From: an uncultured Candidatus Saccharibacteria bacterium
Lineage (GTDB): Bacteria; Patescibacteriota; Dojkabacteria; SC72
Direction of reading: 5' to 3'
DNA length: 64,000 nt
NCBI GenBank assembly: GCA_964480345.1
Contig: CAYZNW010000004.1
Span: 27,962-91,961, forward strand
The notes beneath the pieces are model-generated. The model did no database searches. It saw only the letters and a program-made list of their open reading frames with translations, and had not been told where the DNA came from. The position numbers were made by a program, and so were the translations under genes. Of the stretch, positions 5,199-52,843 are shown one piece after another; the stretch's first letter is position 1, and every line of letters begins with the position of its first letter.

Positions 5199-6422
5199 CT
5201 ATCTCAAATATCCAATAATCTCTTTCAAGGTAGGACGCCTATTGTACATTAGACAGCCCAATTCAAACAATTTCATTGAGACAAAGAGAGCAAGAAGTAC
5301 ATACAGTATTGACATGACTATACCTAAAGTTAATTCTTCTGGTGAGAGTTTTCCAAATGAATTTCGTAATAACAAGGTCATAAATGATGTAAATGGGAAG
5401 TAACTAAAGATTTTTGCTAACAAAGAATCAGGTTGAGTCATGAGTGTTTGTAATAGATAGGTTGGGAAGATAGAGAGGATAATAAATACTGAGGAGAGAT
5501 TCCTACTATCCTCAGCTCCTGCTCCAACTGCACCTACACCAATCATTACTGCTGCAAAGAAGATAAAGCCTGTTACAGTTAAGAACACATTTAATGGAAG
5601 TAAACTCCAATCTATATTATGTAAATTAATATTAAACGGTAGGGTGAGATCAAAGTAGTTATTAATTCCGAAGTATGCAATTAATCCTAATCCTACCCAT
5701 GCTAATAGCTGAGTCATAGCAACACCAATTAATCCAATCATTTTTCCCATCATTAAAGATCTCTTATCTACCATGGATAGCATTGTCTCAATCATACGAT
5801 TCTCTTTCTCTGATGATACACTATCAAGCATAAATGAAGAGGAGATGAATACTGCAAGGAAGAATATCACCAAAGATAGTACAGGTAATATATACTCTTC
5901 AAAACCAAACGGTTTCAAATTTCCTTCTGCATCATATACATGAATAGTAGAAGAGTACGGCCCAGTAACCATTTTACTTACACTCTCATCAGAGATACTA
6001 CTTAATGCGACACCTTTGAACATAGATTCAGCTACAGTAGTTGCCATTGCATTTGTAAACATACCACCCTCATTGCTGAAAAACACTTCATATTTAAGAT
6101 CTGATTTAAAGGTGGAAGGGACATATATAATTAATGACTTTGTATCTTTAATTATCTCTTCCTTAACTATATCTACTGTAGAAGCCTTTATGATAGGCTC
6201 AACATACATAGCATCAGGAAACAAACCAGCATCATCTACAACATATATTTTGTTGAAAGCACTTCTGTCTTCCATCTTCTTTGTACTATCTGCGGCAGAG
6301 TATCCAGAAATGAACATTATTAATCCCATGAATACAGGGAAAAACAGAGTAGAGAACCAGAATGATTTCTTTCTAACTACCTTTAAATATTCAAATCTAG
6401 CAACAACTAAAAATTTTCTCAT
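5199..6422 (-). CDS. ABC-2 family transporter permease
   Basis: About six predicted TM segments in the C-terminal half. Start overlaps the upstream ATPase stop by 4 nt (operon). Confidence 0.7.
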   Translation of the reverse strand: MRKFLVVARFEYLKVVRKKSFWFSTLFFPVFMGLIMFISGYSAADSTKKMEDRSAFNKIYVVDDAGLFPDAMYVEPIIKASTVDIVKEEIIKDTKSLIIYVPSTFKSDLKYEVFFSNEGGMFTNAMATTVAESMFKGVALSSISDESVSKMVTGPYSSTIHVYDAEGNLKPFGFEEYILPVLSLVIFFLAVFISSSFMLDSVSSEKENRMIETMLSMVDKRSLMMGKMIGLIGVAMTQLLAWVGLGLIAYFGINNYFDLTLPFNINLHNIDWSLLPLNVFLTVTGFIFFAAVMIGVGAVGAGAEDSRNLSSVFIILSIFPTYLLQTLMTQPDSLLAKIFSYFPFTSFMTLLLRNSFGKLSPEELTLGIVMSILYVLLALFVSMKLFELGCLMYNRRPTLKEIIGYLR

Positions 6423-7339
6423 GGCTTTTTCATTAAATCTATAAATATTTGATTTAAACTTGGATAGTCTAACTTAACACTTACTAACTTAGTTCCATTA
6501 CTAATTATTTCTTTTAACACATCATTGCTATCTATAGAGTCGTTTTTAGGTTTAATTTCTGCCATCTTACCATCAATGATTGAGGTATATAGCTTACCAT
6601 TTGCTAAAGGTTGTTTACCGTCAAATTCAATAACAAGATTACTATCACCATGTCTTTTTCTAACTTCATCAACACTTCCATGCTCTAGCATCTTACCTGA
6701 GTTAACTATAACAAGACTGTCAGCCATCTTCTGTGCTTCATCTATTACATGAGTGCTGTAAAGAATAGTGGCACCTTTCTTCTTTCTTTCTAAAAGGATA
6801 TCTATAAACATCTGCCTGTTAACTGGGTCTAAGCCTCTAAACGGTTCATCAAGAATTAATATCTCAGGCTTATGAATTAATGCAACACCAAGCTGTACTT
6901 TTTGTTGCATACCTGAACTTAACTTTGATATCTCTTTATCTTTAGCCTCAATCAAACCTACATACTCTAAGTAGTCGAGAGATTTTTTCTTCGCTTCGCT
7001 ACTTGTCATACCTCTCAAAACACCTGTATATGTGAGAATATCTATAACTTTCGTATCTTTATACAATCCTCTCTCTTCAGGTAAGTAACCAATTACCTTA
7101 TTTAATTTCTCGGTATACTCTTTACCGTTAATTAACAGTTCACCTTCATCTGGTAAATAAATCTTTAACAAACATCTAATAGTAGTAGTTTTTCCAGAAC
7201 CATTTGATCCTAAGAAAGCAAATATTTCGCCTTCATTAACATCAAATGAGAAGTTATCAACTGCTTTAAGATCTCCAAAACTTTTTGAAAAATTCTTTAT
7301 ACTTATAGAATATGAAGCCATATGTAAAATATATAACAT
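6419..7339 (-). CDS. ABC transporter ATP-binding protein (ABC-2 exporter ATPase)
   Basis: Walker A GSNGSGKTTT, signature LSSGMQQK, Walker B ILILDEP. The true start may be the internal MASYSISIK. Confidence 0.85.
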   Translation of the reverse strand: MLYILHMASYSISIKNFSKSFGDLKAVDNFSFDVNEGEIFAFLGSNGSGKTTTIRCLLKIYLPDEGELLINGKEYTEKLNKVIGYLPEERGLYKDTKVIDILTYTGVLRGMTSSEAKKKSLDYLEYVGLIEAKDKEISKLSSGMQQKVQLGVALIHKPEILILDEPFRGLDPVNRQMFIDILLERKKKGATILYSTHVIDEAQKMADSLVIVNSGKMLEHGSVDEVRKRHGDSNLVIEFDGKQPLANGKLYTSIIDGKMAEIKPKNDSIDSNDVLKEIISNGTKLVSVKLDYPSLNQIFIDLMKKP

Positions 7340-7390
7340 ACTGCTAATTTTTCTGCAAGAAAGATTTTAATCATATGATATACTCGCATC

Positions 7391-9869: not shown

Positions 9870-9954
9870 TTTAATTAATAATTAATTTTACATAACAGTA
9901 TATGTTCTAACAATTACAAAATCATTACATCTATAATTATGATATAATTTTCAA

Positions 9955-28210: not shown

Positions 28211-28261
28211 AATGATTAGATTCTACCACAAATAGAGAGCATATGTGATACAATCTACCTT

Positions 28262-31121: not shown

Positions 31122-31150
31122 AGGTTTTGGTTGAGATGATATAATGGGGT

Positions 31151-37775: not shown

Positions 37776-39770
37776 ATGAGATTAGCTACAGATTCTCCAA
37801 TAACAGATATCAAAGGAATAGGGCAGAGACAAGCTGATCTTTACTCCAAACTATCAATATTCTCCGTAAGAGACTTACTCTTCCATATACCTTTCAGATA
37901 CAAAGATACTTCAACTCTAATTCCTATTACAGAATTTAAACAGAGTGGAGAAGGAACATTTCTTGCAGAGATAGAAGATGTAAAAACAACATACTTTAGA
38001 CGAGCAATAGTCTCTATCAAAGTAAAGGATGACACAGCATCATTGAGAATGTCTTTTCTAAATCAACCGTATCTAGCAAAAACTTTTCAAAAAGGAGACA
38101 TATATATTTTTGATGCAAAAATAAGCCAAAAAGGAAAAAACAAAAACATATACAATCCTAAATTTGAGAAATTTGAAGCAGAGAAAGAAACTGTACATCT
38201 TGGGAAAATTATGGGCATCTATCCTGAGACAGAGGGATTAACCTCCAAATCAATTCGAACAAAAGTACAAACTTTGCAACCAGATATAGAGAAACTACTT
38301 CCTGATCCAATAAATATAGAAAAATACGATTCACTATCTGACGCAATAAATACAATTCATTTTCCTAACAATCAAGAAGAGATTAAAAAAGCTCGGAATA
38401 GGCTTGCTTTTGATGAAATGTTGAGAATAGCAATAAAGATAGAGCAAGATAGAAAAGAATCAGCGAAACAGAAAGCTAAACCGATGAAAATATATACAAA
38501 AGAGCTGAATCAATTCATCAAAAATCTACCTTATAAACTCACAGAAGATCAAAATACATCAATAGAACAAATACTTGCTGATTGTACAAAAAAAACTCCT
38601 ATGAATAGGTTGCTAAATGGAGATGTCGGTAGTGGAAAAACAATAGTAAGTGCAGTAGCTGTACTAAATTGTATAAGAAACGGATTTTCTGCAATACTTC
38701 TAGCTCCTACAACCGTATTAGCAATACAACATTACAGCACTTTCACAAAAATTTTTGAAGATACAGGTATAGATATTGAGCTATGTATATCAACAAAAAA
38801 GAATATTTCAAAAGCAGATAACAAATTAATCATAGGTACACATGCCATACTTTTTGAAAAAGAGCTACCTAAAGATCTAAACCTAGTAATCATAGATGAA
38901 CAACATAGATTTGGAGTAGAACAGAGGCATCATTTCAAAAAAACAGTTAAAAATCCTCCTCACTACTTAACTATGAGTGCAACTCCTATACCAAGAAGCT
39001 TAACTGAGATTTTCTTTGGAGGAATGGATGTCTCAGAGATACGACAGAAACCTGCAAACAGGAAAGAAATTAAAACATATTTTACTCCATCAAACAAAAG
39101 AGTAGATTGCTTAAATTGGGTAAAAGAAAAAATCATTTCAAGCAAAAAAAATAGCAATTCGAATCAAGCCTTCATAATATACCCACTCATTGAAGAGAGC
39201 GAGAAGTCTTCTACAAAATCCATACTAAACGAATACGAAAATTTAAAGAAGCTATTTAAAGGCCTTAATGTAGAGTATCTACATGGGAAATTAAAAGAGA
39301 GGGAAAAAGATCAGTTACTAAATGATTTCAGAGAGAAGAAGATAGATATCTTACTTTCTACAACAGTAATAGAGGTAGGCATAGATATACCTGATGCGAC
39401 AATCATGGTAATAGAGGATGCGGAAAGATTTGGTTTAGCACAATTACATCAACTTCGTGGAAGAGTTGGCAGAGGAGAGAAAGAATCGTACTGTTTTGTA
39501 ATACTCGGAACATCTGTGGAGAATAAAGCTCCAGCAGAAGAGAGATTAAAATACTTTGCAAGCCACTCCTCTGGATTTGAAGTGGCAGAATACGACTTAA
39601 AACATCGTGGCCCAGGAGAGGTATACGGTACCAAGCAATCAGGTATCCCTATTTTCAAAGTAGCAAACATCTACGATTTAGAACTACTTAAAGAAGCCAG
39701 AAAGTTTGCAAAATCGCTGTTGCAGAGAGATAATAACGTGCAATATATATTAGATCATATTTTCACATAG
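37776..39770 (+). CDS. recG: ATP-dependent DNA helicase RecG
   Basis: GDVGSGKT, DEQHRFGVEQR, TMSATPIPRSL, QLHQLRGRVGRG. Confidence 0.9.
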   Translation: MRLATDSPITDIKGIGQRQADLYSKLSIFSVRDLLFHIPFRYKDTSTLIPITEFKQSGEGTFLAEIEDVKTTYFRRAIVSIKVKDDTASLRMSFLNQPYLAKTFQKGDIYIFDAKISQKGKNKNIYNPKFEKFEAEKETVHLGKIMGIYPETEGLTSKSIRTKVQTLQPDIEKLLPDPINIEKYDSLSDAINTIHFPNNQEEIKKARNRLAFDEMLRIAIKIEQDRKESAKQKAKPMKIYTKELNQFIKNLPYKLTEDQNTSIEQILADCTKKTPMNRLLNGDVGSGKTIVSAVAVLNCIRNGFSAILLAPTTVLAIQHYSTFTKIFEDTGIDIELCISTKKNISKADNKLIIGTHAILFEKELPKDLNLVIIDEQHRFGVEQRHHFKKTVKNPPHYLTMSATPIPRSLTEIFFGGMDVSEIRQKPANRKEIKTYFTPSNKRVDCLNWVKEKIISSKKNSNSNQAFIIYPLIEESEKSSTKSILNEYENLKKLFKGLNVEYLHGKLKEREKDQLLNDFREKKIDILLSTTVIEVGIDIPDATIMVIEDAERFGLAQLHQLRGRVGRGEKESYCFVILGTSVENKAPAEERLKYFASHSSGFEVAEYDLKHRGPGEVYGTKQSGIPIFKVANIYDLELLKEARKFAKSLLQRDNNVQYILDHIFT

Positions 39771-43355: not shown

Positions 43356-43922
43356 ATGGCTTTTGAAAACAAAACAGATTTTAGGAAGAAGTTTGGACCT
43401 AGGAAAAACGAATTTATTCATGTTCCAGAAGTACAATTGATAGATGAGAAAGGAGAGAATATAGGGGTCGTTTCTACACAGAAAGCTTTAGAAATGGCAA
43501 AAGAGGTGGAACTTGATTTAGTAGAAGTAGGACCAAATGTTAGACCTCCTGTTTGCAAAATTATGGATTTTTCAAAATACATGTATATGCAAAGTAAAAA
43601 AAGTAGGATGAATAAGAAAGGAAAGGTGAAAGAAACGAAAGAGTTTAGATTTACACCCGTTATAGAGAAAGCAGATGTAGAACACAGGATTAAAAGAGCT
43701 AAAGAGTATCTAAGTAAAGGGCATCCAGTTAAAATATTAATGGTTAGAAAAGGCAGACAAAGTAAAGAGCAGGCATTAGAAGTTTTTAATCAAATATTGA
43801 CTAATTTTACTGATTATAGTAGTATCGAGGCCGTACCTACACAAGAAGGTAATCGTATATCTTTGACATATAAACCAAATGGCAAGACAGAAAACAAACA
43901 AAACAGCGAAGAAAAGAATTAG
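43356..43922 (+). CDS. infC: Translation initiation factor IF-3
   Basis: VQLIDEKGENIGVVSTQKALEMAKE...DLVEVGPNVRPPVCKIMDFSKY. Confidence 0.9.
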   Translation: MAFENKTDFRKKFGPRKNEFIHVPEVQLIDEKGENIGVVSTQKALEMAKEVELDLVEVGPNVRPPVCKIMDFSKYMYMQSKKSRMNKKGKVKETKEFRFTPVIEKADVEHRIKRAKEYLSKGHPVKILMVRKGRQSKEQALEVFNQILTNFTDYSSIEAVPTQEGNRISLTYKPNGKTENKQNSEEKN

Positions 43923-44102: not shown

Positions 44103-44444
44103 ATGAGAGTTAAGGGTGGAACCACAAGGAAAAGAAAACATAATAAAATCTTAAAGAGTACAAAAGGATACAGAATGAGCAAAAGTACTCTATATAGAGT
44201 AGCTCACGAATCTTTCATGCATGCAGGCCAGTATGCATATAACCATAGACAAAGAAGAGCAAGTGATTTCAGAAGAATTTGGATAGCAAAAATTAATGCA
44301 GCATGTAAGAATAATGGCATTCAGTACAAAGATTTAATAAACAAACTAAAGATAAAGAAATCAGAGCTTAATAGAATGGTTCTTGCAGATATAGCACAAA
44401 ATAATCCTGAAGTGTTTTCTGCAATAGTAAAAACTATTTCATAA
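44103..44444 (+). CDS. rplT: 50S ribosomal protein L20
   Basis: MRVKGGTTRKRKHNKILK...AGQYAYNHRQRR...RRIWIAKINAA. Confidence 0.9.
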   Translation: MRVKGGTTRKRKHNKILKSTKGYRMSKSTLYRVAHESFMHAGQYAYNHRQRRASDFRRIWIAKINAACKNNGIQYKDLINKLKIKKSELNRMVLADIAQNNPEVFSAIVKTIS

Positions 44445-44478
44445 GCGTTTCCTATACTACTCCAACAGTCCCATAGTG

Positions 44479-44487
44479 TGTTATAAT
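44479..44487 (+). promoter_or_regulatory. Extended -10 promoter element (TGtTATAAT) for the three-gene cassette
   Basis: TG at 44479..44480 and TATAAT at 44482..44487. SD AGGAGG at 44551..44556, 9 nt before the ATG at 44566. Confidence 0.35.
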
Positions 44488-44565
44488 ACTACTGTATTAT
44501 TACTTTTGTAACAATACAGATCTTTAACAACAATTTCTTATTAATCAAGAAGGAGGAAACACATA

Positions 44566-45066
44566 ATGGTCGGCGAGAGTTATTCACGTTTTGACAATGT
44601 CTATACTCAATTTATTCAACATGGAAGGAAGAACAACATTTATAGCTCTTCAGCATCTATAGAAGAGACTAAGATCAAAGAACTAACTGTGTACGAAGCA
44701 CTAGAAGCTTCTTACAACAAATTTGATAAGGGAGAGAAGATTACAGAATTACTCATCACATTAGCATTTTACAAATACTGTCAGGAGGAAGCTCCAAGTC
44801 TTATACCAAGCTATGGTATAACTCTAGTTTCTGTAAAGAAATCAAAGAAGGCGAATTGGTCATATCAGCTATATCTCAATGGAATAAGGATGCTCAGTCG
44901 TCCAACAGATGATATTAAAATTACGGAGAAAGAAATATATACTCCAGTTCATCTAATTATCACTGATCCAAATCCACCAGAAATAAAAGTATTTACATTA
45001 TTTAGTGAAAAGAAATTGGATAATCTACTCAATGAATGTCATTATTTAAATCTGGGGGAAGTATGA
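44566..45066 (+). CDS. Hypothetical cytoplasmic protein (cassette gene A, 166 aa)
   Basis: No recognisable motif, signal peptide or TM. Strong SD. Stop TGA overlaps the next start (ATGA). Confidence 0.5.
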   Translation: MVGESYSRFDNVYTQFIQHGRKNNIYSSSASIEETKIKELTVYEALEASYNKFDKGEKITELLITLAFYKYCQEEAPSLIPSYGITLVSVKKSKKANWSYQLYLNGIRMLSRPTDDIKITEKEIYTPVHLIITDPNPPEIKVFTLFSEKKLDNLLNECHYLNLGEV

Positions 45067-45590
45067 ACATTAATATGTCAAAAAAGTCTGAGAAAATCTG
45101 TAATCAATTAAGATTCTACTGTAACAGACTAATTAACACTAGATACTGGAATACTTTCTGTAAACAAGATGGTGTTTATCAAGAAGACACCACTTTCAAC
45201 GATATGACATATAAAGATGCAATCGAAATAGCCTATATGAGATTCTTCTCACCTAGTAGTTTGTATCATCACGACAGTGAATGCCCAGCAAGATCATCTC
45301 TTGCGACTACATTGGCTTTCCTTTATTCAATAGACTTAGGAGGACACTTAGTATACATTGTGCCCAAACTTTTTGTAATCAAGCAACATTTTGAGCATCA
45401 AGAAGTAATACTTGCACTAATACAACTAGAAGATATACAGATTGCTGTAGATCCATCTCAAATATTTGGTCCAGATATATTCCATACATTAGCAGATGTT
45501 AAGGAATATCATCATAAAGATACCTACACTTCAGATATTCATCAATACAAAAAAATTTCTTCTTTACTAAAGAAAAAAATGCCAGTTTAA
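45063..45590 (+). CDS. Hypothetical cytoplasmic protein (cassette gene B, 175 aa from MNINMSKK)
   Basis: ATGA overlap with gene A suggests translational coupling. The track ORF starts earlier (45036) but the in-frame ATG at 45063 is preferred. No recognisable domain. Confidence 0.5.
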   Translation: MNINMSKKSEKICNQLRFYCNRLINTRYWNTFCKQDGVYQEDTTFNDMTYKDAIEIAYMRFFSPSSLYHHDSECPARSSLATTLAFLYSIDLGGHLVYIVPKLFVIKQHFEHQEVILALIQLEDIQIAVDPSQIFGPDIFHTLADVKEYHHKDTYTSDIHQYKKISSLLKKKMPV

Positions 45591-45621
45591 TTAATAAGAA
45601 ATAGAACAGTTAGGAGGGAGG

Positions 45622-46149
45622 GTGAAAGAAATAACCTGTTTTTTCAAAGGAAAAATTACAAGAACCTACCAACTAGATATACCAGAGGAGGTAGAAGTAT
45701 TTATTAGAGTAACACCATTTCTACCAGATGATATCTATTCTGAGAATGCCTTTATTAGTTCAGAGCTCTATGATTTGTCACAAGAGGAAGGAGTATATTT
45801 ACAAAAAGTTTTGTTAGCTGATGACATACTACATTGTTTTCTGATATTTACTACAACATTCCAGCCATTAGATTATGATTTGAAAGAGAGGTCTCCAGAG
45901 GAGCTATATTTAATAAACAAACATTTGATATCATCTAATATGTCACCATTGACAAAAGATGTTAAGATACTCTCAAAGCACAGTGATGAGTATGCTAGCT
46001 TTGCTAGTAGTCAAGATGAATCAATATCTCCGTTTGAAAATGACGAATGGATTTATGCAGAACGTGTTTTATCAGAATGGACAGAAGAAACAGAGAAAAA
46101 GCTCTTTTTACCGAACAAAATCTATAAGAAAATATTCAAAACCAAATAA
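45622..46149 (+). CDS. Hypothetical acidic cytoplasmic protein (cassette gene C, 175 aa, GTG start)
   Basis: GTG start immediately after AGGAGGGAGG. No recognisable domain. Confidence 0.45.
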   Translation: MKEITCFFKGKITRTYQLDIPEEVEVFIRVTPFLPDDIYSENAFISSELYDLSQEEGVYLQKVLLADDILHCFLIFTTTFQPLDYDLKERSPEELYLINKHLISSNMSPLTKDVKILSKHSDEYASFASSQDESISPFENDEWIYAERVLSEWTEETEKKLFLPNKIYKKIFKTK

Positions 46150-46158
46150 CTGCTCAAT

Positions 46159-46256
46159 AGTGGATATAACTTAATATTGAATGCTTAAAAAGCTTCTCTA
46201 TACTACAAAGTTATATCCACTACAAACCTTTCTATTCAACCTACTTTTGTAGTATA
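46159..46256 (+). repeat. Two interlocked inverted repeats in the gene C-pheS intergenic region (possible terminator/attenuator)
   Basis: Perfect 14-bp IR agtggatataactt (46159..46172) / aagttatatccact (46208..46221). Second 11-bp IR tatactacaaa (46199..46209) / tttgtagtata (46246..46256). Each arm of one IR lies inside the loop of the other. Confidence 0.45.
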
Positions 46257-46260
46257 CTGA

Positions 46261-47301
46261 GTGGAAATGAATTTCACACACAACAATTTACAAAAAATAT
46301 ATGACAATTTAATTAATGATATTAATTTGCCATACGAAGAGATAAAACAGAAGTATTTAAGTAAGAACGGAGAGCTTACTCAAGCACTGGCTGAAATCAG
46401 TACTCTTCCCAATCAACAGAAAGCTATATATGGAAAAGAAGTAAACACTCTCAAAACATATATATTAGAAAAGTTAGAAGAGAAACTAAATAATGAGAAG
46501 ACATACTCAACAAAAAAACGAATAGATCCAACAGCACCATTTGATATTAATACTAAGAAAAATCAAAGACCTACTATTTTTGATGAGAAGGGATCAAAGC
46601 ATCCTCTAAATAAAGAAGTAGAGAAACTAATAGGTATTTTTCAAAATATGGGTTTTGATGTATTAGAAAGTAGACAAATAGATGATGATTACCATATGTT
46701 TGAATCACTCAATTTTCCTCAAGGTCATCCTGCCAGAGATATGTATGATACATTTTGGACAGAAGATGGTTTTGTTTTACCAGCACATACCTCAACAATG
46801 CAAAATAGAGCTATGAAGAAGTTTGGACCTCCTCCAATTGCAGCAGTTATTCCAGGACGATGTTTTAGAAACGAAGCTACAGATGCCTCACACGAACATA
46901 CCTTCTATCAAATAGAGGGAGTGTATGTAGATAAGGGTATATCTATAGCCAATATGGAAGCTACAATCAAAACCTTTCTCGAGACATATTTAGAAACTAA
47001 GTTGGAAGTAAGAATGCAACCATCTTTCTTCCCATTTACAGAACCTGATTGTGAATTTGTAATTAGCTGTCCTTTCTGTAAAAAAGCAGGCTGTAGTGTA
47101 TGTGGATACTCTGGATGGATAGAGATAATGGGGTGTGGAATGATACATCCAAATGTATTGAAAGAAGCAGGCATAGATTCTGAAGTTTACTCAGGGTTTG
47201 CATGGGGTTTTGGAGTAGATAGATTAACAATGATCAAATTAGCCATAAATGATATACGACTTTTGCGAGATTCTAATCTTAATTTCCTAAGGCAATTCTA
47301 A
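46261..47301 (+). CDS. pheS: Phenylalanyl-tRNA synthetase alpha subunit
   Basis: FPQGHPARDMYDTFW, GRCFRNEATDASHEHTFYQIEG. Includes a Cys4 zinc-ribbon insertion (CPFCKKAGCSVCGYSGW). Confidence 0.9.
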   Translation: MEMNFTHNNLQKIYDNLINDINLPYEEIKQKYLSKNGELTQALAEISTLPNQQKAIYGKEVNTLKTYILEKLEEKLNNEKTYSTKKRIDPTAPFDINTKKNQRPTIFDEKGSKHPLNKEVEKLIGIFQNMGFDVLESRQIDDDYHMFESLNFPQGHPARDMYDTFWTEDGFVLPAHTSTMQNRAMKKFGPPPIAAVIPGRCFRNEATDASHEHTFYQIEGVYVDKGISIANMEATIKTFLETYLETKLEVRMQPSFFPFTEPDCEFVISCPFCKKAGCSVCGYSGWIEIMGCGMIHPNVLKEAGIDSEVYSGFAWGFGVDRLTMIKLAINDIRLLRDSNLNFLRQF

Positions 47302-47302
47302 G

Positions 47303-49792
47303 ATGAAAATAACTACGAACTTACTAAAACAATTTGGCGATATTAATGTCTCAGATGAAGAGATTATTAGATTAACTAAAGAACATATTGCAGAAGTAGA
47401 GGAGCAACACAATCTAAAGGCTGATTATGAAAATATAATCATTGCAGAGATAACAAGCAAAGAAATACATCCTGATTCAGATAAGCTTGGAATATATAAA
47501 TTAACCACAGATGGAAGTAATCAAATACAGGTAGTTGCAGGAGATAGAAATTTACAAATAGGGGATAAGGTAGCATATATCCAACCAGGAGCCATAGTTC
47601 CATATTCTATTTACACAGAAGAAGAGCCTATTACAATTAAGAGTGTAAAATTAAGAGGTGTAGATTCAAACGGTATGATGGGGTCAGAAAGAGAGTTGAA
47701 TATAGGAAGCAATCATATAGAAGTCTACAAATTACCTAAAGATGCTCCTGTAGGAGAATCTTTCTCAAAATATTTCAATTTGGAAGATACTGCATTCTCC
47801 ATAGAGAATAAAGGCTTAACAAATAGAGGAGATCTTTTTGGAGTGATTGGTCTTGCAAGGGAGTTAACAGCTATTACTGGTAATAAATTTACCTCTCCTG
47901 AGTCATATGTCGATCATGATAGTAACCTTAAACCAGAAACTAGCTGTTTAAATCTTCAAATTACAAATAATGCTGAAGTGCTTTGTCCAAGATATACAGC
48001 AATAGCTATAGATAATGTAAACATACAAGAATCTCCAGTAGAGTTTAAATCTACATTGATAAAATGCGGTATTAAACCAACAAACAATATAGTTGATATA
48101 ACAAACTATGTCTCTTTGATATTTGGACAACCTATGCATGCTTTTGATTATGACAAGGTTATTTCTAATGATAGAAGTACTACTAATACTGCAAATATAG
48201 AAATTAGATTAGCTAGAGAAGGTGAAAATATGTTAGGTTTGGATAACAAAGTACACGAGTTGAATAGTAGGACAGTTGTAATAGCAGATAGCACCCATCC
48301 AATAGCTATTGCAGGAGTAATTGGTGGTAAAGATACAGAAGTAGATTTCAATACCAGAAGAATAATATTTGAATCTGCTAATTTTGATAAAAATAGTATT
48401 AGAAAAACCTCGATGGAGTTAGGGGTATTCACGGATGCATGTACTAAATACAAACACTCTTTAGATACAGAGGTAACATTACCTGCTCTAAAGAAAGCAG
48501 TATCATTAGCGAAAGAGTTAGCTGGGGCTAAAGTTGCTTCCTCTATAGTCGATCTATATGAAATACCTTTTGATACAAACCAAACCATTAAGTTTGATAT
48601 TGATAATTTTAATACAATAGCAGGTATAGAAATAAGTCCAGAAGAGATAAAAAAGATTCTTGAGAATTTGGAGTATAAAGTTACAGAGAACGATGATAAT
48701 TCATTAATTGTATTTATTCCTTCATGGAGGAGAGATATTTCTATCAAAGAAGATCTGTACGAAGACATTATTAGAGTGTATGGATACAACAATATAGTTC
48801 CTATTCTTCCAAAGAAACAGATTAAACCTCCTGTAAAAAATGAGATATTTGAACTTAAGAAAGAGGTTCGAAATATATTAAGTAATAGAGGAGCTAATGA
48901 AATTGTAAGTTACAGTTTTACTGGTTTGAAGAATTTCCAAGAGTGTAATTTAAATCCTGATGAGGCTTTTAGAATTGCAAATCCTCTTTCACCTGAATTG
49001 TTTCTGATGAGAACAAGCATCTTGCAATCAGTTTTGCAAAAAGCAAAAGAGAATATATTACGATGTTTTGATAAATTTGTGTTATATGAGCAGGGAATTT
49101 CTCATCTAAGGAGTAGAATAGATGAGGGTAATGTTCCTGAAGAGGAGTGGATGCTTTCTACAGTTGTTACTGATATGAGAAAGGATGATTATGAAGGCTC
49201 GCCATATTATGAATCTAAGAAATATCTTGATGATTTACTGGAAAGTTTAAATTATCATAATGTTAAATATACTCTTGTAGCAGATATGGAAGAGGAGAAA
49301 TTGCCTGCAAGAATAAAGAATCTTCTTCCTATATTTGATCCTAATGTCTCAGCGATTGTATCTATGGGTATGGATTATTTCGGTATAGTAGGAGAGGTGA
49401 AAGAGAGTATTAAAGATACTTTCAAATTACCAAAGAACACATCTGCTTTTGAGATTTCATTATCTCATCTCATTACATTAGATAGGTCAATGAAATCATA
49501 TAGAGATATCCCTGTATATCCTCCTTTTTCAATAGATATGTGTTTTAAGGTAGATACTGCTATACTTTACTCTGATTTATATAACGAGATTAATTTTGTT
49601 GTAAATAAAGAGAATTACTATGGAAAAGTTGAATGTTTGGATATATATCAAGATAACGATGAGAAGAAAAAGATAACATTTAGAATATCAGTAAGTAATT
49701 ACAACAGTACATTTACTGAGAAACAAATTAATGAGATTAAGGAACAAATAATTAAAAAGCTATCAAAGAAATTCTTAGCTGAGGTTGTTTAA
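47303..49792 (+). CDS. pheT: Phenylalanyl-tRNA synthetase beta subunit
   Basis: 829 aa, starts 1 nt after the pheS stop. B3/4, B5 and FDX-ACB-like architecture inferred from length and context. Confidence 0.85.
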   Translation: MKITTNLLKQFGDINVSDEEIIRLTKEHIAEVEEQHNLKADYENIIIAEITSKEIHPDSDKLGIYKLTTDGSNQIQVVAGDRNLQIGDKVAYIQPGAIVPYSIYTEEEPITIKSVKLRGVDSNGMMGSERELNIGSNHIEVYKLPKDAPVGESFSKYFNLEDTAFSIENKGLTNRGDLFGVIGLARELTAITGNKFTSPESYVDHDSNLKPETSCLNLQITNNAEVLCPRYTAIAIDNVNIQESPVEFKSTLIKCGIKPTNNIVDITNYVSLIFGQPMHAFDYDKVISNDRSTTNTANIEIRLAREGENMLGLDNKVHELNSRTVVIADSTHPIAIAGVIGGKDTEVDFNTRRIIFESANFDKNSIRKTSMELGVFTDACTKYKHSLDTEVTLPALKKAVSLAKELAGAKVASSIVDLYEIPFDTNQTIKFDIDNFNTIAGIEISPEEIKKILENLEYKVTENDDNSLIVFIPSWRRDISIKEDLYEDIIRVYGYNNIVPILPKKQIKPPVKNEIFELKKEVRNILSNRGANEIVSYSFTGLKNFQECNLNPDEAFRIANPLSPELFLMRTSILQSVLQKAKENILRCFDKFVLYEQGISHLRSRIDEGNVPEEEWMLSTVVTDMRKDDYEGSPYYESKKYLDDLLESLNYHNVKYTLVADMEEEKLPARIKNLLPIFDPNVSAIVSMGMDYFGIVGEVKESIKDTFKLPKNTSAFEISLSHLITLDRSMKSYRDIPVYPPFSIDMCFKVDTAILYSDLYNEINFVVNKENYYGKVECLDIYQDNDEKKKITFRISVSNYNSTFTEKQINEIKEQIIKKLSKKFLAEVV

Positions 49793-52578
49793 TTGTTATT
49801 ACCATTTCCAGGTTTAGGTGTGATAGGGTCGGCAGGAGGAGTAACTGGTTCAGTTGCTACGGCTTTGACTGTGACAGAAGCAGTACCTATTTTTGCATGA
49901 TTATCTTTAGCTGTTACTACTATTTTAATATCTCCTGCTTTAGTGGTAGTAGGTACTGTGTAATGTATTACATATGAGCCATCAGCATTTAATGAAGCGG
50001 CAACATTTTTCCCATCAAAAGTAACTATGAACTCAGAAATACTTTCTAAGTATCTAACACTTCCTGTGATTTCCACCATCTGACCTATTTTTACTTCAGC
50101 TCCAGATGCCGGAGTCTTAATTTCTACTACAGGAGCATTATTTTCACCTAAAGGAAGCTGACATACTCCAGTTGCAGGATTATCAAATAGATAAACTGAA
50201 TCTGCAGGAGCAGTTAAATGTACTTTATATGCATCAAACTGTAAAGAATTTTCTAATTTTGTAGAAAGAAGGATTTTTGTCGTAACTAGTTCATACTTTC
50301 GAGCTGCATCAAGATTCGTAGGAATCAAATTATTAGCTTTACAAACTTCAATTACCTTTCTGTTATCAACCTGAGGAGCTTTACCAGCAATATATAAAGA
50401 AGCTTCTTTCGCACATTCTACTCCCTCAGCAGGAGTTGCACCTGTATCTGTACAAACCGATGTAGTCATAATACCTGCGGGCCTATTAAAAGCAAATTCA
50501 GAGTAGCTATCTATAACTCGCTTGAAGAAAGAGTTAGCCATAGCAAGAGAGATCGTAGAAGCCCAACCGTTAGGCATAATCTCTCCATTGTTATTACCGT
50601 TCCATGCCCCAACAACTAAGCTTTGATTGTACAAGAAGGCATCTAAGTCTTTAGGACCATCTGTTGTACCTGTCTTTCCACAAACTTTTTTACCATTAAT
50701 ATAGAAGTAATTATCTCCATACCTGTCATGGAATCCTTGGATATCACAAGCCATCCAGTTAATTAAATATGCTTCCTTTTCATCTATAACTCTAGTTCCT
50801 TCATTATCTTTATACTCTTTCAAAATATTCCCTTTGTTATCCTCCACTTTTAGAATAGATGTAACATCGTGTTTAACTCCACTGTTTGCCAATGTTGCAA
50901 ACGCACCAGCAAAGTCCAAAAGTTTCATCTCTGCCGAACCTAATCCTAAACTCAAACCGTAACTAGCTTTAGATACAATATCTACACCTAGTTTCTCCAT
51001 AAGCTGAATATACCCATCAATACCACCAAGCTGCAACATATATACGGCAGGAGTATTTCGAGAGAGAACAAGAGCTTTTCTTGCAGTCATTAAACCTTGA
51101 TTTTTTCCATCCCAGTTCTTAGGGTCATAGGTTCCAAATTTAATCTCAGCTATATCAGGAGCAAGTGTCCAAGGACCGTACCCTCTTGATATCGCATTAA
51201 GATACACAAAAGGCTTAACTGAAGAACCCATCTGTCTATCACTCGTCGTAATATTTACATTACCATCCACACGAGGATCCGAAGTATTCCAGTAATCTAC
51301 AGAACCAACCATAGCTAATATCTGACCGTTCTTTGGATTTAATACAATCATAGCTCCGTTATTTGCATTAAACCTTCTAGCAGCATCAACACTTTTAACA
51401 ACCTCTTCTTCTGCTATAGATTGCAAAGACGGATCAAGAGTAGTAGTAACTTTCAATCCTCCTCTTTCAACACGATCAATGCCAAACTCCTCTTCTAAAA
51501 GCTGTTTAACATAAAAGACAAAATGAGGAGCCTTAATATCAATCTTCTTTGTACTGTAAGTTAACTCTTCATCTCTTGCCGAAGCTATTTCATCTTTATT
51601 AATACCTGTAAGATTTTGATGCTTTTCCATTTGATCTAAAACATACTGCTTTCTTACCTCAGCCATCTCCGGTTTTGTTCCATACAAAGGAGAGTATATT
51701 CCAGGACTCTGAATCAAACCTGATATCAATGCACTCTCTGCAAGTGTAAGTTCACTTACATCTTTATTAAAATATGCATTAGCAGCAGCTTGGAAACCGT
51801 AATTAACTCCTCCAAGAGGCACTTCATTCATATACATCTGTAATATCTGATCTTTGGTAAATGTCTGTTCTACCTGCATAGTAATCAAAACCTCCTGTAT
51901 TTTCCTGGAGTATGTTTGTTTGTAGGCATCATCTCCAAGCACATCGTAGAGGATAGTGTTTTTTACCAACTGTTGAGTAACAGTACTGGCTCCTCTAACA
52001 ACTCTCTTATTTCTTAAGTTCTGAATAAAAGATTTGAGAATGCCTAAGTAATCCAATCCTTTATGCTGATAAAACTCAATATCTTCAGCAGCAAGCAGAG
52101 CCCATTTAGTATGATCAGGAATCTGATCTATTGGAACAAATTTCCTGTTGTGATCTTTATATACTGTGTAAAGTAAATTCCCATCTTTATCTAAAATCTG
52201 AGTACTCTGATCTGATACTCTATCAACAAGTTTATCTGGAGAGGGTAATGACTTCTGAATGTTTCTTAAATACAAACCAACCACTATTAATCCAACACAA
52301 CCAAGAAAGAATAAAACACCAATGAAAATATATACTACTTTCTTTGCCTTCTTTTTAAACTCAGCATTACCAAAAGGTCGTTTCGTTCCTACTTTCTTAA
52401 TATCTCCCTCCTTATTACTTCTTTTACTAATACCATTAGCACTATACTTCTTGAAATTTTTGTACCTATTTAATTCAGTAGGACCAAAAGATCTTGAAAG
52501 ATTTCGAATGGAATCCTTACTTCCAAACATCTTTTTTCGTCTATCGCTTATACCAAAACTGTACTTCATGGTTACCAT
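49789..52578 (-). CDS. Class A penicillin-binding protein (bifunctional GT51 transglycosylase/transpeptidase, PBP1A-like) with a basic N-terminal cytoplasmic extension and a C-terminal Ig-like/Pro-rich extension
   Basis: GT51 motifs ALLAAEDIEFYQHKGLD and RGASTVTQQLVKN. Transpeptidase SSVKPF (SxxK). The C-terminal 150 aa are beta-rich, ending in PVTPPADPITPKPGNGNNN. Confidence 0.85.
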   Translation of the reverse strand: MVTMKYSFGISDRRKKMFGSKDSIRNLSRSFGPTELNRYKNFKKYSANGISKRSNKEGDIKKVGTKRPFGNAEFKKKAKKVVYIFIGVLFFLGCVGLIVVGLYLRNIQKSLPSPDKLVDRVSDQSTQILDKDGNLLYTVYKDHNRKFVPIDQIPDHTKWALLAAEDIEFYQHKGLDYLGILKSFIQNLRNKRVVRGASTVTQQLVKNTILYDVLGDDAYKQTYSRKIQEVLITMQVEQTFTKDQILQMYMNEVPLGGVNYGFQAAANAYFNKDVSELTLAESALISGLIQSPGIYSPLYGTKPEMAEVRKQYVLDQMEKHQNLTGINKDEIASARDEELTYSTKKIDIKAPHFVFYVKQLLEEEFGIDRVERGGLKVTTTLDPSLQSIAEEEVVKSVDAARRFNANNGAMIVLNPKNGQILAMVGSVDYWNTSDPRVDGNVNITTSDRQMGSSVKPFVYLNAISRGYGPWTLAPDIAEIKFGTYDPKNWDGKNQGLMTARKALVLSRNTPAVYMLQLGGIDGYIQLMEKLGVDIVSKASYGLSLGLGSAEMKLLDFAGAFATLANSGVKHDVTSILKVEDNKGNILKEYKDNEGTRVIDEKEAYLINWMACDIQGFHDRYGDNYFYINGKKVCGKTGTTDGPKDLDAFLYNQSLVVGAWNGNNNGEIMPNGWASTISLAMANSFFKRVIDSYSEFAFNRPAGIMTTSVCTDTGATPAEGVECAKEASLYIAGKAPQVDNRKVIEVCKANNLIPTNLDAARKYELVTTKILLSTKLENSLQFDAYKVHLTAPADSVYLFDNPATGVCQLPLGENNAPVVEIKTPASGAEVKIGQMVEITGSVRYLESISEFIVTFDGKNVAASLNADGSYVIHYTVPTTTKAGDIKIVVTAKDNHAKIGTASVTVKAVATEPVTPPADPITPKPGNGNNN

Positions 52579-52834: not shown

Positions 52835-52843
52835 TGATATAAT
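52835..52843 (+). promoter_or_regulatory. Extended -10 element TGaTATAAT for hisS
   Basis: TG at 52835..52836 and TATAAT at 52838..52843, a few nt upstream of the hisS start. Confidence 0.3.

Follow-up and report, generated by a model that had tools for sequence, protein, structure and literature searches.

LapG is a periplasmic, calcium-dependent protein with a Cys-His-Asp triad. The vasohibins VASH1 and VASH2, tubulin tyrosine carboxypeptidases that belong to the transglutaminase-like cysteine proteases and are about 70 residues longer than the protein described below, require the partner SVBP and act on a substrate, tubulin, that is absent from bacteria (PMC9108980). CPR-C4 (PDB: 7OB6 and 7PJO), a cysteine protease of the candidate phyla radiation (CPR), also has a vasohibin-like fold; it is widely conserved with hundreds of homologues, possesses a Cys61-His93-Leu115 triad and measured protease activity, and its likeness to vasohibin was recognised only after its structure existed (PMC9108980). 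Here we describe a protein that is predicted to adopt the same type of fold, and which is encoded by gene B, the middle one of three tandem genes (A, B and C) that lie between rplT and pheS in a 64,000-nucleotide stretch (the window) of contig CAYZNW010000004.1 from a member of Candidatus Dojkabacteria (WS6, CPR). The assignment to Dojkabacteria and the comparisons with relatives draw on PheS-anchored loci, with one genome per species. We regard it as rather probable that these genes constitute a clade-restricted, vertically inherited small operon that grew gene by gene at a permissive intergenic site. The genes, together with the ribosome-binding site of the third, are:

44566..45066, + strand: gene A, 166 aa, soluble, isoelectric point (pI) 6.0; probable tandem paralogue of B that has diverged
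45063..45590, + strand: gene B, 175 aa, the conserved core gene, with a predicted transglutaminase-like (vasohibin/LapG-type) fold and no conserved Cys or His
45612..45621, + strand: Shine-Dalgarno (SD) sequence AGGAGGGAGG for C, abutting its GTG at 45622
45622..46149, + strand: gene C, 175 aa, GTG start, acidic (pI 4.7, charge -12), a singleton ORFan of this genome only

The order thrS-infC-rpmI-rplT-pheS-pheT is kept across 65 related species, and the gap between rplT and pheS has a median of 90 bp in the 67 loci having both genes. This gap measures 1819 bp in the present genome, 1328 bp in its closest species (L003, PheS 87% identical) and about 780 bp in L004, L006 and L007, and the insert is missing from approximately 58 of the 65 related species. 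An exhaustive phmmer search with the concatenation of A, B and C as query, against 1.84 billion representatives of about 15 billion proteins, recovered only A itself and C itself, and, for B, the query along with four clusters at 27-44% identity; a k-mer-seeded search of 5.8 billion proteins yielded self matches only for all three. Every one of the B homologues sits between rplT and pheS (in L003, L004, L006, L007, L083 and L084). L003 has an A pseudogene and B, without C, and the other five lineages have B alone, with neither A nor C. In a neighbour-joining tree based on ThrS, IF3, L20, PheS and PheT the carriers come out as a single clade in every one of 100 bootstraps, with the branching ((L007,L084),((L003,window),(L004,L006))). 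Taken with parsimony, this tree points to a single gain of B, a later single gain of A and a gain of C in the lineage of this genome. B is thus inherited vertically from one origin at one site. IF3, L35, L20 and PheS show neither indels nor diagnostic substitutions peculiar to the carriers, and those seen in PheT and ThrS are trivial; with no meaningful changes of this kind, the test for co-evolution of B with its translation-gene neighbours is negative.

Several lines of evidence indicate that the insert and its open reading frames (ORFs) are real. The three ORFs follow one another in tandem on the same strand; an AAGGAGG SD sequence (44550-44556) precedes the ATG of A at 44566, and the stop of A overlaps the start of B as ATGA (45063-45066). 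When the 1.8-kb region was shuffled, the longest stop-free run averaged 66 codons and reached at least 160 codons in 1 of 2000 shuffles; the insert contains three ORFs of 166-184 codons, for which chance does not account. The in-frame codon-usage margin of A, B and C is 0.22-0.26, as against 0.23-0.35 for bona fide genes of the window, and the GC content of the insert equals that of its flanks. Moreover, the segment 44103-46750 is identical in two independent read-set assemblies (Logan SRR15237811 and SRR15237809), and the region is therefore not chimeric. Unlike the acidic C, A and B are near neutral; a Kyte-Doolittle scan shows no transmembrane segment in any of the three. None of them matches a Pfam, NCBIfam or PADLOC family, and a scan of PHROGs gave a single non-significant match (E 0.06), which we take as noise. 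A first-pass annotation of this DNA, made from its letters without database searches, had described an insertion of non-core genes with their own extended -10 promoter at 44479-44487, SD sites, an ATGA overlap and a nested inverted repeat ahead of pheS, encoding proteins free of transmembrane segments, and all of this is borne out. Its statement that the proteins lack a recognisable motif holds for sequence families and gives way, in the case of B, to a predicted transglutaminase-like fold.

Public gene calls (NCBI and Logan) begin B at the ATG at 45036, which gives 184 aa and a 31-nt overlap with A. The homologues align from the ATG at 45063 (175 aa, ATGA-coupled), and we accordingly place the start there. 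B is under purifying selection: its ratio of nonsynonymous to synonymous substitution rates (dN/dS) is 0.19 between L004 and L006 (dS 0.63) and about 0.2-0.3 in deeper comparisons, the corresponding values for rplT, infC and pheS being 0.02-0.06. It also evolves fast, its identity being 44% where that of PheS is 87%.

Neither the B of the window (Pfam and NCBIfam, E <=1) nor the five B members (Pfam, E <=10) gave a match, and a sequence profile search of PDB with B returned only EngA and ArsA noise; the family is hence recognisable by structure prediction only. An AlphaFold2 model built on the five-sequence alignment of the B family reached a predicted local distance difference test score (pLDDT) of 83.8 and a predicted template modelling score of 0.85, with three of the five models above 73. 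Structural comparison of this model gave the highest scores with VASH2 (9.8), VASH1 (9.7), LapG (9.4) and Ceg10 (8.6), followed by TglA and protein-glutaminases (about 7), transglutaminases (6.5) and CPR-C4 (6.3), with arylamine N-acetyltransferases (NATs), NlpC/P60 and Rad4/XPC lower; Foldseek was concordant (VASH1, probability 1.0). The model displays the core of the superfamily, a nucleophile helix packed on an antiparallel beta-sheet, and B is thus predicted to have a transglutaminase-like, papain-like cysteine-protease fold. The five-sequence alignment contains no invariant Cys and no invariant His. Where the core helix 79-92 begins, positions 78-82 read SSLAT, SSLGT, TPLAT, TPLTT and STLAI; the start of the strand 112-122 is H/Y/Y/Y/H, and no other His column is invariant. 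As third triad residue, transglutaminases and LapG have an Asp, and vasohibin and CPR-C4 a backbone carbonyl; in B the invariant D130-P131 stands directly after the strand 125-129 and resembles the 'DPT' motif of transglutaminases, to which it may correspond. The want of an invariant Cys or His marks B as a candidate pseudo-enzyme, and, as far as the model goes, it is most likely a non-catalytic binding protein (a pseudo-protease) and not a hydrolase.

The sole homologue of A lies in L003 (5862-6368); it is 39% identical and interrupted by an in-frame TAA (6000-6002). Six contigs assembled from other samples (L205-L210) carry the same nonsense codon as the L003 record, which indicates a fixed nonsense mutation and not an assembly error, and a pseudogene in the sister species in turn means that A is dispensable. 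Between this genome and L003, A has a dN/dS of about 0.24, with dS saturated. An hhalign comparison of A with the B family gave a probability of 75% (E 2.5e-5) over 131 collinear columns, which include the motifs A.E.AY.RF, L..LAF.Y and DP. This collinearity suggests that A is probably a diverged tandem duplicate of B. A single-sequence AlphaFold2 run on the concatenation of A, B and C (pLDDT 31.6) gave no confident structure for A or C.

C is not found in the six other B-carrying lineages, where the 3' hairpin described below starts 18-45 nt after the B stop; relative to L003 it represents a clean insertion of about 550 bp, comprising SD and ORF, that follows B and precedes the hairpin. Comparison by hhalign revealed no relationship of C to the B family. 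As C is without an orthologue, it is its intactness, its SD sequence and its codon usage that speak for it as a gene. When the DNA of C was compared with the window in all frames, just one weak match of 40 aa was obtained: residues 57-96 (45790-45909) resemble the C-terminal region of RecG (39507-39626), DYDLKERSPEELY versus EYDLKHRGPGEVY, with 13 of 40 positions identical (pairwise E 1e-4; E 0.002 against the whole window). This likeness could be due to chance or be a trace of a partial origin of C.

Apart from the genes, the inserted unit contains elements at both of its ends that recur in the carrier lineages:

44479..44487, + strand: extended -10 element TGTTATAAT of the inserted operon, a putative promoter
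44492..44519, + strand: 5'-terminal stem-loop of the predicted transcript, -9.8 kcal/mol, z = -4.0
44519..44529, + strand: conserved leader box GATCTTTAACA, 11 nt, GAT(C/T)(T/G)TT(A/G)ACA in all 7 lineages
46159..46221, + strand: nested RNA hairpin at the operon 3' end, -27.2 kcal/mol, z = -5.3
within 46159..46221, + strand: outer stem of the hairpin, AGTGGATATAACTT / AAGTTATATCCACT
46179-46196, + strand: inner hairpin, GAATGCTT-AAAA-AGCTTC

The -10 element is again TGTTATAAT in L003; it reads TGATATAAT in L004 and L006 and TGATACAAT in L083, and in L007 and L084 it is weak or missing. The element lies 79 nt 5' of A, and the leader that follows it ends in the strong SD sequence. The leader stem occurs in L004, L006 and L083 too (z -2.4 to -4.6), with another stem sequence; it is weak in L003, and L007 and L084 allow no clear call. 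Eight positions of the leader box are invariant in the seven lineages. A terminator within 110 nt past the rplT stop is present in 0 of 7 carriers and in 44 of 60 non-carriers. This suggests that the insertion replaced the rplT terminator, so that read-through from infC-rpmI-rplT is to be expected.

The hairpin consensus, GTGGATATnnC...GnnATATCCAC, is found at all 8 loci that have B and at none of the 76 that do not, and in the window it is single-copy. Its outer stem has 14 pairs with 95.9% of cells paired, three of them with compensatory double changes, and the orthologues all fold at -21 to -26 kcal/mol (14-15 bp stem). In the inner hairpin L083 shows a UA-to-CG swap, and L084 has G-U pairs that work only on the + strand RNA. 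Seven lineages in which synonymous sites are saturated show 100% conservation of the 9-bp stem base and of the inner UUGAAUGC. The tail of the hairpin is CUACAAACCUUUC here and CUUAAAUUAUUUC in relatives. Searching 44300-46400 with Rfam 15 (E <=10) recovered only spurious microRNA and small nucleolar RNA matches far below gathering scores, and no known family such as T-box or L20 leader. A metagenome scan with the hairpin pattern, whose 18 specified bases are too short for a database of this size, returned 120 loci, none of which encodes a B relative or contains a true hairpin orthologue; the GAATGC stretch in L156 is unrelated. We also considered the hairpin as a T-box or tRNA-Phe sensor, given UUC/UUU in its inner stem, and rejected this on account of the missing Rfam T-box match, the position of the pheS promoter 3' of the hairpin and the variable spacing to pheS. 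A role as pheS operator was likewise rejected, the hairpin being about 30 nt from pheS here and about 80 nt in L007.

To appreciate what the insertion changed, the usual state of the junction has to be considered. The gap generally contains a canonical rplT terminator (aaaggactc...gagtccttttt) and a (T/A)GTATACT motif, usually 5-30 nt ahead of the pheS ATG; the latter is seen near that ATG in most relatives, irrespective of the presence of the insert. The flanking features in the window are:

44103..44444, + strand: rplT (L20; PF00453), the upstream neighbour; the canonical terminator is not found 3' of rplT in the carrier clade
46250..46258, + strand: pheS promoter motif TAGTATACT, 8 nt upstream of ATG 46267 (leaderless or near-leaderless pheS)
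46261..47301, + strand: pheS, the downstream neighbour, with ATG 46267 as its likely start

The earliest possible start codon of pheS is a GTG at 46261, which had earlier been read as the start; the PheS homologues begin at the equivalent of ATG 46267 (MNFTHNN versus MKFTHNN). Together with the spacing to TAGTATACT and the same geometry at other genes of the window, this makes ATG 46267 most likely the true start. On the + strand TGnTATAAT or TGnTATACT lies 6-9 nt 5' of an ATG at 7376-7384, 9940-9948, 28246-28254, 31137-31145 and 52835-52843, in addition to 46250-46258 ahead of pheS, and the same arrangement recurs on the minus strand at 57402-57394 and 61118-61110; at least seven genes of the window have TGnTATAAT at this distance from their ATG. 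An extended -10 element so close to the ATG of many genes suggests that mRNAs without a leader are the norm in this Dojkabacteria genome, from which the A-B-C operon would depart in having a leader of 79 nt that contains an SD sequence. In the literature on leaderless mRNAs in Patescibacteria we found no paper addressing this point.

The junction has received an insertion on another occasion. A further Dojkabacteria lineage, L025, has an independent 786-bp insertion between rplT and pheS (L025 6214-7001), with an unrelated 185-aa ORF on the minus strand (6365-6922) that has no Pfam match; it retains both the rplT terminator and the pheS promoter motif. This supports the idea that the junction tolerates insertions. 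Elsewhere in the neighbourhood, rpmI and the 3' end of infC share about 44 nt (43879-43922), and most Dojkabacteria loci examined show an overlap of about 40 nt as well. Further downstream the convergent pheT (+ strand, ending at 49792) and a 929-aa penicillin-binding-protein-like ORF (minus strand, 49789-52578) share a 4-nt 3' overlap (49789-49792), which leaves no space for a terminator between them.

We propose the following history for the locus. In the ancestor of a narrow clade a unit consisting of a promoter, a structured leader, B and the 3' hairpin would have displaced the terminator of rplT, with the leaderless pheS promoter lying downstream. A would have followed in the ancestor that this genome shares with its sister species, a tandem duplication of B with subsequent fast divergence being the most likely route, and C would have been added in the lineage of this genome alone. 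B, and by extension A, would be a soluble protein of about 170 aa with a vasohibin/LapG/CPR-C4-type fold that probably binds without catalysis. The operon would be transcribed both by read-through from infC-rpmI-rplT and by initiation at its own TGTTATAAT promoter. The 5' stem-loop probably stabilises the mRNA. The 3' hairpin, for its part, probably substitutes for the lost terminator: it would set or protect the end of the transcript and keep read-through from reaching the pheS promoter.

Certain points weigh against this account. How the operon is transcribed, and what its leader stem-loop and 3' hairpin do, is read from sequence. The fold of B comes from one AlphaFold2 model on a five-sequence alignment, with two of the five models having a pLDDT below 45, and the catalytic positions were mapped by secondary-structure register and spacing, not by residue-level superposition. 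The B of this genome has Ser78/79, His112 and Asp130, and may thus have a lineage-specific Ser-His-Asp activity. The paralogy of A and B carries an hhalign probability of only 75%, and C has neither structure nor homologue to constrain it. Finally, the hairpin has no canonical U-tract and was not called as a terminator by a consensus scan, and the invariance of its sequence exceeds what a terminator needs; this excess hints at a sequence-specific recognition that the account does not cover.

Among the alternatives, the first-pass annotation had favoured a three-component accessory system, such as an anti-phage defence or toxin-antitoxin-like module, placed in a housekeeping operon. Such a system would fit the tight same-strand packing with its ATGA overlap and separate promoter, and the absence of the genes, whose products are sequence orphans, from most relatives; papain-like toxin/immunity pairs and effector proteases (9l5u, SpvD and GtgE) are among the weak fold matches, and the acidic C is imaginable as an inhibitor. 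We nevertheless consider it very unlikely. PADLOC (E <=1) gave no match for A, B, C or the B homologues, there was no match to a toxin or antitoxin family in Pfam or NCBIfam, and tblastn against phage records and a scan of IMG/VR found nothing. No mobility genes or defence-island context accompany the genes, whose neighbours are housekeeping genes and whose GC content is host-like. The three proteins do not form a coherent module, in that only B recurs, being alone in five of the seven lineages, with A confined to two sister lineages (in one of them as a fixed pseudogene) and C unique; the trio occurs together in this genome only, and B is devoid of the nucleophile that a protease toxin requires. 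The comparison of synteny that had been suggested shows the cassette to be variably present but restricted to one clade and one junction with strictly vertical inheritance instead of being scattered as a patchy or mobile system would be. Nor did the three turn out to be core proteins of all relatives or members of a housekeeping family. The locus reveals no new defence or regulatory system. A different possibility is that A and C are non-functional, that is, decaying or accidental ORFs, with C perhaps a proto-gene, carried along with B as the only real gene. The nonsense codon of A fixed in the sister species, the lack of any homologue of C among about 15 billion proteins or orthologue in relatives, and the failure of single-sequence AlphaFold2 to give confidence for either would agree with this. 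On the other hand, both are intact, and reading frames of 166-175 codons would hardly arise by chance in a genome of 32% GC; both have a strong SD sequence, A is translationally coupled to B, their in-frame codon usage is host-like and the dN/dS of A against L003 is about 0.24. CPR genomes are small and prone to deletion, and dead DNA would be expected to be lost from them. We therefore hold this possibility to be unlikely.

Other explanations assign a different activity to B or shift the function to the RNA. B, perhaps with A, might be an active transglutaminase-like enzyme (a protease, deamidase or cross-linker) with a nucleophile such as Ser/Thr78 and a translation component as target. The fold is nearest to active enzymes with unusual triads, namely vasohibin and CPR-C4 with their Cys-His-Leu(carbonyl) arrangement (PMC9108980); the spacing from 79 to 112 in B is about 33 residues and that from C61 to H93 in CPR-C4 is 32 (PMC9108980). 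A hydroxyl residue (Ser/Thr) occupies column 78 in all five sequences, D130-P131 is invariant, and the loss of the rplT terminator couples the expression of B to the ribosomal-protein operon (IF3, L35 and L20). Against this, three of five lineages have Tyr at the His position and no other His is invariant, and there is no sequence-level match to a transglutaminase, vasohibin or BTLCP family. The translation proteins of the carriers lack diagnostic changes (with the trivial exceptions in PheT and ThrS), and B is 27-44% identical while PheS is 75-87% identical, unlike what a constrained active site would show; we judge such an enzyme unlikely. In another scenario, which we find decidedly unlikely, the RNA would be the functional core, with the hairpin 46159-46221 acting as a small RNA, a cis-regulatory or a protein-binding element, possibly recognised by B, and the ORFs would be secondary. 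The invariant stem base and inner UUGAAUGC amid saturated synonymous sites, the compensatory changes at three pairs, the G-U pairs that are meaningful only if the + strand is read as RNA and the perfect co-occurrence of hairpin and B would all accord with it. The lack of an Rfam match at E <=10, the near-neutral and not basic B (pI 5.6-7.6), the varying distance to pheS, which is at odds with a pheS operator, and the purifying selection on B itself argue in the other direction. One might also envisage that B and its accompanying invariant hairpin form an RNA-protein module not described before, with a catalytically dead vasohibin-like fold binding a specific structured RNA at the end of the IF3-L35-L20 transcript and tuning that operon or the neighbouring leaderless pheS; this we deem very unlikely. 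We therefore retain as the favoured explanation the clade-restricted operon that grew by successive gene gains.

Compared with the known members of the fold, B stands apart in several respects. It shares the predicted fold of the vasohibins at a sequence identity of 7-13% and without a sequence-level match, and the catalytic Cys and His of the latter are both not conserved in it. Unlike CPR-C4, the B family comprises this protein and four other 50%-identity clusters from one clade and one locus, and is devoid of the Cys/His pair. It also differs from LapG/BTLCP and the Legionella effector Ceg10 in having no signal-peptide or transmembrane-like hydrophobic segment in a Kyte-Doolittle scan, no conserved Cys or His and no match to Pfam BTLCP. 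Inactive proteins of the transglutaminase fold are known, such as the TGD domain of Rad4/XPC and erythrocyte protein 4.2; these are eukaryotic and multidomain, and B is unrelated to them in sequence. Fast-evolving, lineage-specific genes without an assigned function are common in CPR genomes, and the locus offers a well-resolved example, in which stepwise accretion (B, A+B, A+B+C) took place at one site with dated intermediates in sister lineages. Along with the independent insertion at the same junction in L025, this makes a compact case for gene gain in reduced genomes. At the same time, B adds to the vasohibin/LapG/CPR-C4 branch a sequence-orphan family that apparently lacks the catalytic dyad, and bears on the spread of pseudo-proteases in ultra-small symbiotic bacteria. 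In sum, B is apparently an inactive, sequence-orphan variant of a known fold, accompanied by a probable paralogue and a singleton ORFan in a lineage-specific operon.

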